Below, piece by piece: positions 24,229 through 29,481 of a stretch of DNA of 64,000 nt (its first letter is position 1; every line of letters begins with the position of its first letter). The notes below the pieces were generated by a model. It was not told where the DNA came from, did not search any database, and saw nothing but the letters and a program-made list of their open reading frames with translations. Origin of the DNA: Moorellaceae bacterium (lineage in GTDB: Bacteria > Bacillota > DSM-521 > Neomoorellales > Neomoorellaceae); the NCBI GenBank assembly GCA_049701195.1, contig JBNATU010000005.1, forward strand, positions 9,015 to 73,014, given 5' to 3'. A program made the translations under genes and the position numbers.

Positions 24229-25032
24229 CTATTCCTCCTCAGATTCTCGTGGAATTTTCTCTTCCCGTTCTTCGCCCTTTCCCTCTTGAACGGCGGAACC
24301 GCCGGCCACTGCCACTTTTACCAGGGCCGGTCGCAGAAGACGCCCGTGCAAGAAATAACCTTTGCGCAGTTCCGCCATCACCAAGTTATGCCGAGCTACA
24401 TCTTCCGTTTCTTCCGTAGCTACTACTTCATGGTAGGCAGGATTAAAGGGTTGCCCTACGGCCTCCACCTCGGTTAACCCTTGCCTATGCAAAATGTCCC
24501 AGAGTTGGCGACTAACCATTTCTATACCGGTTAACAGTGACCCCTTTTCTCCCCCGGCTCTGCCGGTTTCCAAGGCCCAGCCTAGATTATCCAGTACAGG
24601 CAAAAGCTCCCTTATAAGGTTAGCCGCAGCTTTTTCTTGGGCTTCTTGCTGTTCCCGCCGGACACGCTTGCGATAGTTGTCAAAATCCGCCTGTAAACGC
24701 ACCAGCTGGGAACGGAGTGTCTCTATCTCCCTCTGTTTGGCCGCCAGCTCTTCTTTAAGGGCCGCGATTTCGCCTTCCTCAATTCTCTCTTCCTCACTTT
24801 TCTCGACTACACCGGCTTCATCTATGCTTTCTATCTCTCGTCCTTCTGCTTCGCCTTCCTCTAAACCTGCGGCCGGGGCTCCCTCGGGTGTACCGTTCTT
24901 GCCCGTATCCTCCTCGGTCCCTTCCTCGACGCCCCTTTTATTGATAGATACGGATATGCTGTCTCTACCTTGGCCGCCGCCGTTCGTGTCGTCCTGCAAT
25001 TTTCTCACCTGTTCTTCCTTTTCCTTAGCCAT
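24229..25032 (-). CDS. grpE: Nucleotide exchange factor GrpE
   Basis: GrpE C-terminal fold (DFDNYRKRV...) after a long acidic N-terminal region. I prefer ATG 25032 (MAKEKEE). hrcA-grpE-dnaK-dnaJ gene order. Confidence 0.9.
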
Positions 25033-25088
25033 AAACTTCCCCTTCACCCCTTCCGGCAAAAAGACCAAACACACCTCCAAGTGCCGGC

Positions 25089-26123
25089 CTAACCGCATAA
25101 CTTTTCTAAAGCCCGGGAGAGATTGCGCGCCACATATTCCAGAACAGAAATGGTGCGAGAATAATGCATACGCGTAGGTCCCAGAACTCCTACATTACCG
25201 ATAACTTCTCCGTTTATTTCATAGGTTACGGTGAGTATGCTGCAATTATTAATGTCCTTATACTTGTTTTCCCGCCCGATCTTAACGGTAAGCCCTGCCG
25301 GAGGGCCTTCGGCAAACAGTTCGCGTAACGTTTCGGTCCTTTCCAGGAGAGATAACAGCCCTTTAACTTTATCAATACTCCTGAATTCGGGTTGTTCGAA
25401 AAGGTTAATAGTGCCGTCCAAAAAGATTCTCTCTTCTTTTTCCAATCTGCTCAGCTGTTCCAGCAGCTCTATCAAAAGGGAACAAAGTTCCTTATGCTCG
25501 GAAACAAGTTCCCGATAAACATTGTTTAACACTGCCGGTTTCAACTCTTCCAACATTACGCCTTGCAGGCGCTCATTTAACATACAGGAAAGACGGAAAA
25601 GTTCGGGGCTGCTTACTCCTTTCGGCACATTAAATAGATGGTGTTCTACCAACCCGTTGCTGGTAACCACTACCAGCAAGGCTTTGCCCGGAGACAGATA
25701 TAACAGCTGTACCTGCTGAATATGCGACTTCCCCTGATAAGGTCCCACCGCCACCGCTGCATAGCTGGTCATTTCGGCAATTAGTCGGGTAGCGTCGGCC
25801 AGAACCTGTTCGATTTCCCCTATTTTTTGCTCGAACCGCCGGCGAATATATTCCTTTTCGGCAGCACTAAGCTCATGCTTCTCCATAAGACAGTCCACGT
25901 AATAACGATAACCTAAATCAGATGGGATGCGGCCGGCAGAAGTATGAGGCTGCTCAATAAGGCCGAGTTCCTCCAGGTCGGCCATTTCATTGCGGATGGT
26001 GGCCGGACTCACCCCTAAATTGTAGCGCCGGGCAATGGTACGGGAACCTACCGGCTCTCCCGTAGCAATATAATCTAAGATAATAGCCTCTAGAATCTTC
26101 CTTTTCCGTCCCTCCACCCGCAT
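25089..26123 (-). CDS. hrcA: Heat-inducible transcription repressor HrcA
   Basis: 344 aa with a winged-helix N-terminus (RKILEAIILDYIATGEPVGSRT). It is the first gene of the dnaK operon, and a CIRCE element lies upstream. Confidence 0.95.
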   Translation of the reverse strand: MRVEGRKRKILEAIILDYIATGEPVGSRTIARRYNLGVSPATIRNEMADLEELGLIEQPHTSAGRIPSDLGYRYYVDCLMEKHELSAAEKEYIRRRFEQKIGEIEQVLADATRLIAEMTSYAAVAVGPYQGKSHIQQVQLLYLSPGKALLVVVTSNGLVEHHLFNVPKGVSSPELFRLSCMLNERLQGVMLEELKPAVLNNVYRELVSEHKELCSLLIELLEQLSRLEKEERIFLDGTINLFEQPEFRSIDKVKGLLSLLERTETLRELFAEGPPAGLTVKIGRENKYKDINNCSILTVTYEINGEVIGNVGVLGPTRMHYSRTISVLEYVARNLSRALEKLCG

Positions 26124-26143
26124 GGATACTCACCTTCTTTTGA

Positions 26144-26170
26144 TTAGCACTCAGGTATGTCGAGTGCTAA
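26144..26170 (-). promoter_or_regulatory. CIRCE operator (HrcA binding site) of the hrcA-grpE-dnaK-dnaJ operon
   Basis: TTAGCACTC-aggtatgtc-GAGTGCTAA is a perfect match to the CIRCE consensus TTAGCACTC-N9-GAGTGCTAA. Confidence 0.9.
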
Positions 26171-26184
26171 AAACTTTCATTAAA

Positions 26185-26213
26185 AACATAGCACCCGCCC
26201 GGCGATTTGTCAA
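26185..26213 (-). promoter_or_regulatory. Sigma-A-type promoter of the hrcA operon
   Basis: The minus strand reads TTGACA-17 nt-TATGTT, immediately upstream of CIRCE. Confidence 0.55.
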
Positions 26214-26225
26214 GCAAATTCCGCC

Positions 26226-26494
26226 CTGGTGTATCCCCACTTTTTGCAGGGGAGGCCTGCTTGGACTTGAAAGCGAGCGAACAAGCCTTCGCGGTAGTCA
26301 AACTTAATGAAGCCGAAAGCGAAGGCGGACCCGAGGCTTTTGAGAGGCCTGAGGCCGGCAACTGAGACAGGATATTTAAATTCTGCCGGGAAGTCCGCCT
26401 TAAGCTCTAAAGCTGAATGATAGTTTGGCCCGCGAGGGAAACTTTCGCGAGCGAAAGCCAAGCAGACCTAGGAGCAAAACTGGGGATACGTCAG
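26226..26494 (+). mobile_element. MITE-like element, family A, copy 1 (269 bp)
   Basis: The ends are CTGGTGTATCCCCAC... and ...CTGGGGATACGTCAG, within ~45-bp imperfect TIRs. It is flanked by a perfect 9-bp direct repeat AATTCCGCC (26217-26225 and 26495-26503). There is no credible ORF inside. Confidence 0.75.
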
Positions 26495-26553
26495 AATTCC
26501 GCCTCCTCTCCCAAGAGTGGGGATACGCCAGAATTCCGGCGGTTCGCCCGGGC

Positions 26554-27681
26554 CTACATAAAGGCTACAAAGACTTCGTTAGCCAGGGGTATACCCTTCT
26601 CTGTAAGACGAAGATGATCGCCCTGTACTTCCACCAGTCCCCAAGCAGTTAGGCGCTCTAGTTCTTTCTGGTAAACATCCACCAATTCTTCTCCAAAGCG
26701 GTTTCTAAATTCCTTTAAACTAAGCCCGCGCAGCAGGCGCAGGCCCAAAAAAACGGTTTCCGCCATCTGTTGGCGTCGGGTCAATATCTCCTTTTCCGCT
26801 ATAGGCCACTTTCCCTTTTCCACGGCCTCGCAATAAGCCTCTAAAGAGGCATAATTTTGCCATCGCTCCCCCTCCCAATGGGAAGCGGCTCCCGCGCCTA
26901 AGCCCAAGTAAGGACTATTCTCCCAGTAAACCAGGTTGTGCTGGCACTCCCAACCGGGGCGGGCAAAGTTGGATATTTCGTATTGCTCATATCCTGCGGC
27001 TCTCAACTTGGCCCTGGCCCTATCATACATAGCCACCATCTCTTCCTCGGCGGCCGGACGAAGTTTTCCCGCCGCTTGCCGCCGGCCCCAGACGGTTTCC
27101 GGCGTTAGCTCCAGAGCGTAGGTAGAGAGATGCTCGGGTTCCAGGGCCAGAGCCCGATTCAAGGTATCCTCCCAGTCAGATAAACTTTGGCCCGGCAGAC
27201 CATATATCAGGTCCAGGTTTATGTTCTCAAACCCCGCTTTCCGGGCCCAATCAAAGGCCTGGTATATCTCCTCGGTCCGGTGTATGCGGCCCATAGCCCG
27301 CAGCATATTATCGTTAAAGGACTGGGCTCCCAGAGAAAGACGGTTAACTCCGACAGCGCGCAAGGCTTTTAACTTGGGCAGCGTAACCGTCCCGGGATTG
27401 ACCTCCAGGGTAATCTCGGCCGTTTCTTCTATACCCAAGATATTCCTGACCCGAGATATTAATCCCAATAAGTCGCCACCGGACAGATAGGTGGGAGTGC
27501 CGCCTCCCAGGTAAAGGGTATCGGCTTTACCCGGACGCAAAGCAGCGGCTACCAGTTCCATTTCCCGGGTCAGGGCTTGCAGGTAGCGCCGGACTCCGGA
27601 GGCGGAGACCCCGGGATAGGAATGGAAGTCACAATAGTGACACTTCTTTCTACAAAAAGGAAGGTGGATGTAGAGGTTCAC
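26554..27681 (-). CDS. hemW: Radical SAM heme chaperone HemW (HemN-like)
   Basis: CRKKCHYCDF radical-SAM motif and a HemN_C domain. lepA-hemW synteny. Confidence 0.9.
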   Translation of the reverse strand: MNLYIHLPFCRKKCHYCDFHSYPGVSASGVRRYLQALTREMELVAAALRPGKADTLYLGGGTPTYLSGGDLLGLISRVRNILGIEETAEITLEVNPGTVTLPKLKALRAVGVNRLSLGAQSFNDNMLRAMGRIHRTEEIYQAFDWARKAGFENINLDLIYGLPGQSLSDWEDTLNRALALEPEHLSTYALELTPETVWGRRQAAGKLRPAAEEEMVAMYDRARAKLRAAGYEQYEISNFARPGWECQHNLVYWENSPYLGLGAGAASHWEGERWQNYASLEAYCEAVEKGKWPIAEKEILTRRQQMAETVFLGLRLLRGLSLKEFRNRFGEELVDVYQKELERLTAWGLVEVQGDHLRLTEKGIPLANEVFVAFM

Positions 27682-29481
27682 CTAATCCACCCTCAATACG
27701 GCCATAAAAGCTTCCTGGGGTATTTCTACTTTCCCTATCTGTTTCATCCTCTTTTTACCTTCTTTTTGTTTCTCCAACAATTTGCGTTTTCGGGTAACGT
27801 CCCCGCCGTAACACTTGGCCAAGACGTTTTTGCGCAAAGCCCTTATGGTTTCTCGGGCAATTACCCTGCTTCCGATGGCCGCCTGTATAGGTACGTCAAA
27901 AAGCTGCCGCGGAATAAGCTCCTTTAAGCGCTCCACCAAAGCCCGACCGCGCTGGTAAGCCCGGTCGCGGTGGACGATTACCGAAAGGGCATCCACGACT
28001 TCATTGTTGATCAGAATATCCAGCTTTACCAGGTCGGAAGGCCTGTAACCCACGAGTTCATAGTCCAGCGAAGCATACCCGCGAGTACGGGATTTCAATT
28101 GGTCGAAGAAATCATATATAATCTCCGCCAGCGGCAGTTCATAAGTAAGAATTACCCGCTTTTCCGAAAGATACTCCATCCCCAAAAAAAGGCCCCGCCT
28201 TTCTTGACAGAGCTCCATAACTGCGCCCACGTATTCGGAGGGCAACATCAGGGTAGCCTTCACATAAGGTTCTTCCATGGAAGCAATAGTCCCCGGAGGG
28301 GGAAGATGAGTGGGGTTATCCACCATAAGTACTTCCCCGCCGGATTTTATCACTTTATAGACTACGCTGGGAGCGGTAGTAATAAGCTCTAAATCGTATT
28401 CCCTCTCCAGGCGCTCCTGGACAATCTCCATGTGGAGGAGCCCCAGAAAACCGCAGCGAAAGCCGAAGCCCAGGGCAGCCGAAGTCTCCGGTTCAAAGAC
28501 CAAAGCTGCATCATTCAACTGAAGCTTTTCTAAAGCATCCCTCAGGTCATCGTATTTTTCCGAATCCACCGGATAAAGGCCGCAATATACCATAGGCGTA
28601 ACTCGCCGATACCCGGGCAACGGAGCGGCAGCCGGCCTATCGGCGCTGGTAATGGTATCTCCGACCCGGGTATCCCTTACATTCTTAATCCCGGCAGCCA
28701 AATACCCCACTTCGCCGGCCTCCAGGGATTCTACCGGCTTGGGCGCCGGGGTAAACACCCCGGCTTCAGTTATCTCAAACTCCTTGCCGGTGGACATCAT
28801 GCGGATGACCATCCCCTTGGCAATGCGCCCGTGGACCAACCGCACGTAAGGGATAGCGCCCCGGTAGGAATCGAAATGGGAATCAAAGATCAAAGCTTGT
28901 AAAGGTTGACTCACGTCTCCTTTAGGAGGTGGAATGCGCTGGACAATAGCTTCTAAAATTTCCTCCGTACCCTGGCCCGTTTTGGCCGAAGCCAGAATCA
29001 CGGTACTGCCGTCCAACCCGAGAACCTCTTCCAGCTCCCGCCGCACGCGTTCCGGTTCCGCATTAGGAAGATCTATTTTATTGATTACCGGTATAATCTC
29101 CAGGTTGTGCTCTAATGCCAGGTAAAGATTAGCCAGAGTCTGGGCTTCAATGCCCTGGCTGGCGTCTACCACCAGCAGGGCCCCCTCGCAGGCCGCCAGG
29201 CTCCGCGAAACTTCATAGGTGAAGTCCACATGGCCCGGTGTATCGATTAAATTTAAAATGTACTCCTGACCGTTGCGGGCCCGATAGGAGAGGCGTACAG
29301 CCTGTAGCTTTATAGTAATACCCCGTTCCCGCTCCAGTTCCAGAGTATCCAACACCTGGTCCACCATTTCCCGCGGGCTCAAGGCACCGGTATATTCCAA
29401 TAAACGGTCGGCCAGGGTAGACTTGCCGTGGTCTACATGGGCAATAATGCAGAAATTGCGGATACGCTCTTGCTTGGTCAA
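27682..29481 (-). CDS. lepA: Elongation factor 4 (LepA)
   Basis: [21 protein letters not shown] and a LepA C-terminal domain. I prefer TTG 29481 ([10 protein letters not shown]), because GTG 29493 abuts the GGAGG RBS. Confidence 0.95.

Follow-up and report, generated by a model that had tools for sequence, protein, structure and literature searches.

Layout of the hemW-hrcA spacer

The window, by which we mean the whole 64,000-nt stretch of DNA analyzed, corresponds to positions 9015-73014 of contig C5 in a 2.89 Mb genome assembled in 64 contigs. The spacer between the hemW and hrcA genes holds the hrcA control region, a complete copy of a MITE (M2), a stub of another copy (M1) and three copies of a 9-bp target (T1, T2 and T3), arranged as follows.

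25089-26123, minus strand: hrcA coding sequence (344-aa ORF)
26144-26170, no strand: CIRCE operator, TTAGCACTC-N9-GAGTGCTAA, read directly and kept in the spacers of relatives
26185-26213, minus strand: hrcA promoter, with the -35 hexamer TTGACA at 26213-26208, a 17-nt spacer and the -10 hexamer TATGTT at 26190-26185
26214-26216, no strand: 3-nt spacer GCA that separates the -35 hexamer from the duplicated target
26217-26225, no strand: T1, AATTCCGCC, promoter-proximal 9-bp target duplication of M2, matching 26495-26503 at 9/9 positions
26226-26494, plus strand: M2, complete 269-bp MITE, left arm adjoining the promoter; probably the younger insertion
26495-26503, no strand: T2, AATTCCGCC, second target-duplication copy of M2
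26501-26531, minus strand: M1 stub, probably the older copy; left-type arm positions 1-31, which read CTGGCGTATCCCCACTCTTGGGAGAGGAGGC inward from 26531
26532-26540, no strand: T3, outer target copy AATTCCGGC, running straight on into the native flank
26554-27681, minus strand: hemW coding sequence (radical-SAM HemW/HemN-like, 375-aa ORF), its stop codon 13 nt past T3

The HrcA protein is 59% identical to Neomoorella carbonis HrcA and 80-86% identical to the orthologues of the five closest relatives. In a consensus scan the hrcA promoter has 10/12 consensus matches with a TG extension, and its stretch TTTGTCAAGC is kept in five relatives that lack the element. A search of Rfam with positions 25000-28000 returned nothing except one chance microRNA match, M2 belongs to no Rfam family, and a terminator scan of the hemW-hrcA spacer found none.

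M2 starts with CTGGTGTATCCCCAC and ends with ACTGGGGATACGTCAG, and its nearest genomic copy is 92% identical. Direct reading confirmed the 269-bp element between perfect AATTCCGCC repeats that had been described from the sequence alone. A solo terminus, TGGGGATACGCCAG, lies 14 nt past T2 at 26518-26531 and is followed by T3, as also described; the 15-mer GTGGGGATACGCCAG given for it begins at 26517 rather than 26518. The last 3 nt of T2, GCC (26501-26503), double as the inner end of the stub, which is 28 nt long when they are assigned to T2. T1 and T2 differ from T3 at a single position, position 8, which lies inside these three stub-derived nucleotides. The extra end had been judged to be more like a left end than like the adjacent right end, and comparison with the family bears this out: left ends match it at a mean of 22.4/34 positions (best 27), right ends at 18.8/34 (best 21). 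The accompanying proposal of a duplicated end-plus-target junction is not supported, as the 13-14 nt before the solo terminus have left-arm subterminal homology and do not resemble the adjacent right end, and the sequence past the third 9-mer is native flank.

Folded as single-stranded DNA, 26217-26540 has a free energy of -69.4 kcal/mol (z = -4.9). In this fold the partner of the left arm is the outer solo terminus and not M2's own right end, and the stub is a better inverted repeat of the M2 left arm than that right end is.

The spacer is empty in related genomes

The spacer was compared through the hrcA orthologues of the five closest genomes. None of the five has a MITE or a solo terminus in the hemW-hrcA spacer. 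In each of them TTTGTCAAGC(A/C) is followed by one 9-mer, with the hemW stop codon 2-8 nt after it. The native 9-mers are AATTCAGAA, GATTAACCC, GATTGTCCG, AATTCAGGA and AATTCGGGG. Since the relatives' spacer is empty apart from one 9-mer, both the MITE and the solo terminus are acquisitions specific to the lineage of the window and the 9-mer is native; the site is not an ancient fixed sequence, in keeping with the mobile origin claimed by the sequence-only reading. In three relatives the place of T3 reads AATTCAGAA, AATTCAGGA or AATTCGGGG, and position 8 of the 9-mer is G in two of these three (G008 and G004), the same as in T3, which is probably the unaltered native 9-mer. An orthologous empty site was not found for the stub locus on contig C22 described below, the region being absent from all relatives.

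The element belongs to an IS10-like MITE family

A blastn search with the element as query showed that the window's own genome contains about 50 full-length copies and many partial ones at 68-92% identity. A 24-nt terminus matrix with a threshold of 12 bits finds 214 termini at or above that threshold in the genome and 7 in the shuffled genome; the solo terminus scores 24.8 bits. Of 63 paired elements, 29 have a perfect 9-bp target duplication and 7 more have one with a single mismatch. When the ends are aligned, the 9-bp direct repeats beside the copies differ in sequence, which identifies the copies as a mobile MITE family. A 9-mer that matches the target at no fewer than 8/9 positions directly after a terminus is expected by chance with a probability of ~1e-4 (28/4^9).

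The consensus terminus is CTG(A/G)(G/C)(G/T)TATCCCCA(C/G)TTTT. The IS10 ends on plasmid R100, located beside an annotated IS4-like transposase, read CTGATGAATCCCC and CTGAGAGATCCCC; CTGAG..ATCCCC is identical between these ends and the family terminus, and overall about 14/22 positions agree. The family combines IS10-type ends (5'-CTG...ATCCCC, 3'-terminal CAG), a 9-bp duplication and short, non-coding, multicopy elements (M2 is overlapped only by short ORFs of 52-83 aa) with an autonomous partner, the last being known from elements of relatives and not from the window's own assembly. It is an IS10-like non-autonomous derivative (MITE) of the IS4 family, IS10 group. As to whether two terminus subtypes exist, variants at positions 4-7 (AGTT, GCGT, GCGC, ACGT and GTGT) occur at both ends and differ in frequency, and the true difference between left and right lies at positions 15-27.

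Several other remnants were seen in the genome. At C31:28709-28957, C21:42740-43003, C20:39491-39755, C2:164608-164871 and C16:60-327, the right-hand target duplication is directly followed by 13-20 nt that repeat the left tip of that very element, rare variants included (CCGAG..., CTGGCGCCTCC..., CTGCTGT...). These look like tandem second copies that were later truncated, perhaps derived from a sister-chromosome hop into the same promoter-anchored site. Two mini elements, C32:24641-24698 (58 bp) and C9:69454-69519 (66 bp), have both termini and perfect 9-bp duplications, their two arms being joined at AGGCCT palindromes. The termini at C31:13236, C32:20956 and C33:1823 run past GGCCTGC into a different interior (GCAAGA.CC...) and are probably a second MITE family with the same ends.

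Autonomous partners are found in relatives

The IS10 transposase was used as a query across the order. Elements of about 1.2 kb with the family termini are present in three related genomes, G024, G023 and G007, the last in degenerate form (C4). The G024 element (C21) is ~1216 bp long with an ORF of 393 aa, and the G023 element (C231) is ~1214 bp long with an ORF of 405 aa. Both ORFs encode IS4-family transposases, with NF033591 scores of 227 and 213 bits, respectively (cut-off 152), and a PF01609 match. The MITE was presumably moved by an IS10-like IS4-family transposase of this kind supplied in trans.

The window's own assembly contains no intact autonomous IS and no matching transposase, only IS-end remnants. 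At C2:1-32, a contig edge, and at C39:18464-18500 a terminus is followed by AAATTTCCGGCATCA, the IS end sequence in G007 and G023. These remnants imply that the genome either formerly held the IS or has an unassembled copy. Other candidate partners were rejected. The two PF01609 matches in the own genome (C43 and C20), which we take by eye to be IS1634-like, lack the family termini; three abundant DDE transposases of G007 (454, 554 and 577 aa) belong to elements with other inverted repeats; and the match at L122 is due to chance.

Insertions are in register with the -35 box

On one flank of nearly every copy the layout is the same: terminus, 9-bp duplication, 3 nt and TTGAC(A). Counted outward, TTGAC starts at position 13 for 37 of the 214 termini, at position 14 for 3, and at any other position for at most 1. 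The motif occurs on exactly one side in 46/63 pairs and on both sides in none. A -10 hexamer (at least 5/6 matches, spacing 16-18 nt) accompanies 51% of the 37 position-13 sites, versus 4% of all 3926 genomic TTGAC. The position-13 rule is also seen in another genus and for autonomous IS copies. In the window, the target's TTGACA is the hrcA -35 box, followed by 17 nt, TATGTT and CIRCE. The ruler for landing thus appears to be the promoter -35 box and not the duplicated 9-mer. The second insertion at hrcA held the 3-nt register even though three of its nine target bases belonged to the stub, from which it follows that the register is taken from the -35 box rather than from the 9-mer.

Re-use of the promoter-side target was found at other loci. 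The duplication made by the later copy comprises, on C22 and C12, 5-6 native nt together with GGC(C) taken from a stub. The arrangement in G007 is GTCAA-tcc-CCTGCCGGC[IS]CCTGCCGGC[MITE arm...], and that in G024 is [terminus]GGCGAGTCG[IS]GGCGAGTCG-agc-TTGACG-17-TAAGAT. Two termini lie exactly 9 nt apart at five loci in the own genome. Literature searches on MITEs in Moorella, TTGACA-directed targeting and IS4-family MITEs at promoters found nothing relevant. At the C22 stub locus, two small ORFs (C22:26810-27250) are under the control of the promoter TTGACA-17-TAAAAT; by eye, their reading frames look like a putative HicA/HicB-type toxin-antitoxin pair.

A 31-nt stub recurs at promoters

The stub found upstream of hrcA is present at seven other promoters, five in the own genome and two in a sister genus (G012). 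At all eight loci it consists of arm positions 1-31 ending in AGGC, followed by 9 nt and then TTGAC, usually with a good -10 hexamer after it; the arm of the C30 stub has one extra base (32 nt). Three stubs of the own genome stand alone (C30:4096, C2:111867 and C5:83043) and two, besides that of the window, lie beside a full copy (C22:26508 and C12:71336), so a full copy is absent beside 5/7 of the other stubs. A later full insertion is present at 3/6 stub-bearing promoters in the own genome. At these three loci (the window, C22:26545 and C12:71373) the second same-direction terminus lies exactly 37 nt past the right end of the full copy, and no other spacing of a second terminus beyond a full copy was found in the own genome. 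The intact copy is always on the promoter side and the stub on the far side. No same-direction double termini were found in the copy-rich sister genomes G007, G010 and G012.

The inner break falls at the same arm position in eight loci and two genera. The match to the arm, followed by X-drop extension, which was applied to the short stubs only as it is too strict for diverged full copies, ends at position 31, in the AGGCCT palindrome common to both arms and just before an internal CTG. In 6/8 stubs the 6 nt after AGGC repeat the final six positions of the outer 9-mer (6/6, 6/6, 7/7, 5/6, 6/6 and 6/6), while the first 3 nt of the 9-mer agree with the stub at about the chance level, e.g., CTT or TAG where the stub has GGC. 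The most fitting description of the stub is thus 31 nt of arm joined to the final 6 nt of the target copy on the promoter side. The stubs on C22 and C12 are bordered on the outside by a 9-mer that is no match to the inner duplication; these loci had further changes, and their history is more complicated or more decayed.

All eight stubs are of the left-arm type. No right-arm stub was found in the own genome, and the cross-genome pattern search took the left-arm form only. Excision from a cryptic end at the internal CTG is an attractive source of the inner break, but it lacks independent support, since no sub-elements starting at this CTG (position 32) with duplications of their own were found.

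In both arms (e.g., window 26253-26272 and the family consensus), AGGCCTGCTTGG is followed by TTGAAA (left) or TTGCGC (right), 9-10 nt after AGGC. This spacing resembles the target geometry of 9 nt and then TTGAC, and the R-type terminus contains TTTTGA(T/C). Upstream of the stub at G012:C62 (L142), AACCTTAAATCAC occurs twice within 1470-1500, 2 nt apart, giving three target copies at that promoter; the doubling is possibly the footprint of another insertion and loss.

History of the site

We consider it likely that two separate insertions of one MITE family occurred at the same 9-bp site, both positioned from the hrcA -35 hexamer. The empty spacers in relatives, the mobile family with its 9-bp duplications and the separate left-arm-type remnant uphold the earlier claim of repeated transposition at one site. 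At a point 3 nt upstream of TTGACA, M1 would have entered the native AATTCCGGC, its left-type arm facing away from the promoter. It would then have been cut to left-arm positions 1-31, joined to the final 6 nt of the target copy next to the promoter, a step whose product is seen in the DNA and whose mechanism we infer. The outcome would be a terminus 40 nt from the -35 hexamer and promoter-side 9 nt composed of AATTCC+GCC. A complete M2 would next have landed 3 nt from the -35 box, as the repeats show, its 9-bp staggered cut comprising 6 native nt and 3 inner stub nt (AATTCC+GCC). Duplication of 6 native and 3 stub nt accounts for the perfect identity of T1 and T2, both AATTCCGCC, with the outer T3 keeping the native AATTCCGGC. 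Trimming before the arrival of M2 is the simpler order because stand-alone stubs exist, but M1 could still have been full length at that time. The left-arm-only bias of all eight stubs is not accounted for by the two-insertion model and counts against it, as do the unmatched outer 9-mers on C22 and C12 and the absence of an intact autonomous IS from the own assembly. Of the internally deleted second insertion proposed by the sequence-only reading, the separate copy stands; the internal deletion does not, as a single terminus (arm positions 1-31) was kept.

The same two insertions may have been followed by trimming in the other order, with M1 complete and inverted when M2 landed. As opposite arm types of M2 and M1 face outward, the full pair would form a long palindrome, here a 270-bp near-palindrome with a 9-nt centre; such a structure would be unstable, and hairpin processing or microhomology joining would reduce M1 to its far 28-31 nt. 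The three stub-plus-full-copy junctions do show 3-4 nt of possible microhomology, GCC or GGCC. We nevertheless regard this order as unlikely: identical stubs lie at five promoters without an adjacent full copy, so stub formation needs no neighbour, and the breakpoint is the same where the junction nucleotides are not shared with the stub's GGC, at G012 C62 (CTT) and C5:83043 (TAG). A second transposition would not be needed at all if the right-end-plus-target junction had been duplicated locally, through replication slippage or unequal exchange. This reading draws on the 23 nt TGGGGATACG(T/C)CAG+AATTCCG(C/G)C, which occur twice, 37 nt apart and 21/23 identical, and on the short duplicates of target and own left tip that follow the right-hand duplication at the loci on C31, C21, C20, C2 and C16. 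The two units are not alike throughout as adjacent tandem units would be, however. The 14 nt after each 23-mer are unrelated, so that only 23/37 nt are common; over the rest, one unit has left-arm sequence where the other has native flank; and the sequence that leads up to the solo terminus, 13-16 nt, is of left-arm subterminal type and not that of the adjacent right arm. The solo end shares no private variants with the right end of M2, and the same stub is found alone elsewhere, all of which makes a junction duplication very unlikely.

The locus might also be read as one element of 306 bp (26226-26531) that has a left-type arm at each end and an 8/9 duplication (T1 and T3), and that acquired an internal right end and target copy later. 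The pairing of the left arm with the outer solo terminus in the fold of 26217-26540 fits such an element, and without the 35 nt at 26469-26503 the sequence would read as a plausible left-type arm in reverse orientation. Against it, we know of no process that puts a copy of an external target inside an element. On C22 and C12, moreover, a matching duplication is seen at the inner terminus (9/9 and 8/9) and not at the outer, and no other genomic copy with the 306-bp double-ended structure and the same inner 9-mer was found. We consider a single element of this kind highly improbable. Mis-joining of reads from different MITE copies would be a concern in a draft of 64 contigs with MITE copies at many contig ends. 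The site, however, lies deep inside a long contig, its stub is identical to no other copy (best 27/34), and independent loci, as well as another genome assembly, show the same architecture, leaving an assembly artefact barely credible.

Among the stubs, the same breakpoints recur without a shared base between the last 3 nt of the stub and the first 3 of the outer 9-mer, so simple repeat slippage is insufficient; GCC/GGCC microhomology could explain some stub junctions but not those without any. The 40-nt distance from the terminus to the -35 box is close to the natural distance from the terminus to the subterminal TTG(A/C) in the arms (AGGC plus 9-10 nt). This suggests that proteins holding the terminus and TTGAC set both breakpoints. 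It is conceivable, if doubtful, that the transposase itself made the 31-nt stub, its complex gripping the far terminus and the promoter TTGAC together in a mimic of the element's own arms, with loss of the looped-out DNA.

Relation to known systems

The family resembles IS10/Tn10 in its CTGA/G...ATCCCC termini, in its 9-bp duplications and in the IS4-family transposases encoded by its partners. IS10 itself favours a symmetric hotspot within its 9 bp, NGCTNAGCN. The window's family instead takes its position from a TTGAC(A) that stands outside the duplication, on one side and at a distance of 3 nt, and that is usually a genuine -35 box. Hotspots are re-used by elements without target immunity, and the hrcA site is similar in that it took several insertions whose neighbours share a target (T[M]T[M]T); it differs in that the second hit kept its register with 3/9 target bases replaced by stub.

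Nearly precise excision of Tn10 reportedly leaves a short terminal remnant between target duplications, with breakpoints said to lie at short repeats in the inverted ends and with both ends kept. The window's stub is likewise a short terminal remnant of a transposon. The 58-bp and 66-bp mini elements fit this type of excision, whereas the stub does not: the Tn10 remnant has both termini, and the stub has one terminus and a promoter-side break 3 nt inside the target copy. The combination of both termini with short direct repeats inside the arms is accordingly not what is found in the window's stub. Among eukaryotic elements, Ty3 integrates at Pol III start sites, a promoter-tethered integration carried out by a retroviral-type integrase. 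The window's family shares with Ty3 a nucleotide-precise distance from a core promoter element; the enzyme class and host machinery are different, and this family is not known to have a tether.

Promoter-anchored targeting, a multi-hit site and a fixed one-ended stub are new features of the IS10-like family, and we found no published description of a one-ended 31-nt stub with fixed breakpoints. Stubs and multi-hit sites of this kind lie directly upstream of housekeeping promoters, here that of hrcA, and could easily be misread as regulatory motifs. The site amounts to a natural experiment on target choice by an IS10-like family, with the same outcome at two other promoters, and the stub offers a concrete, testable way to learn which regions of the end and of the target are gripped by the transposase or by a host partner. 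If the stubs are transposase-made, the residue would be a pseudo-end composed of 31 nt of transposon and the host -35 box, and the stubs would be natural footprints of the two DNA contacts behind promoter-anchored targeting. They may then also keep the promoter a favoured landing pad.
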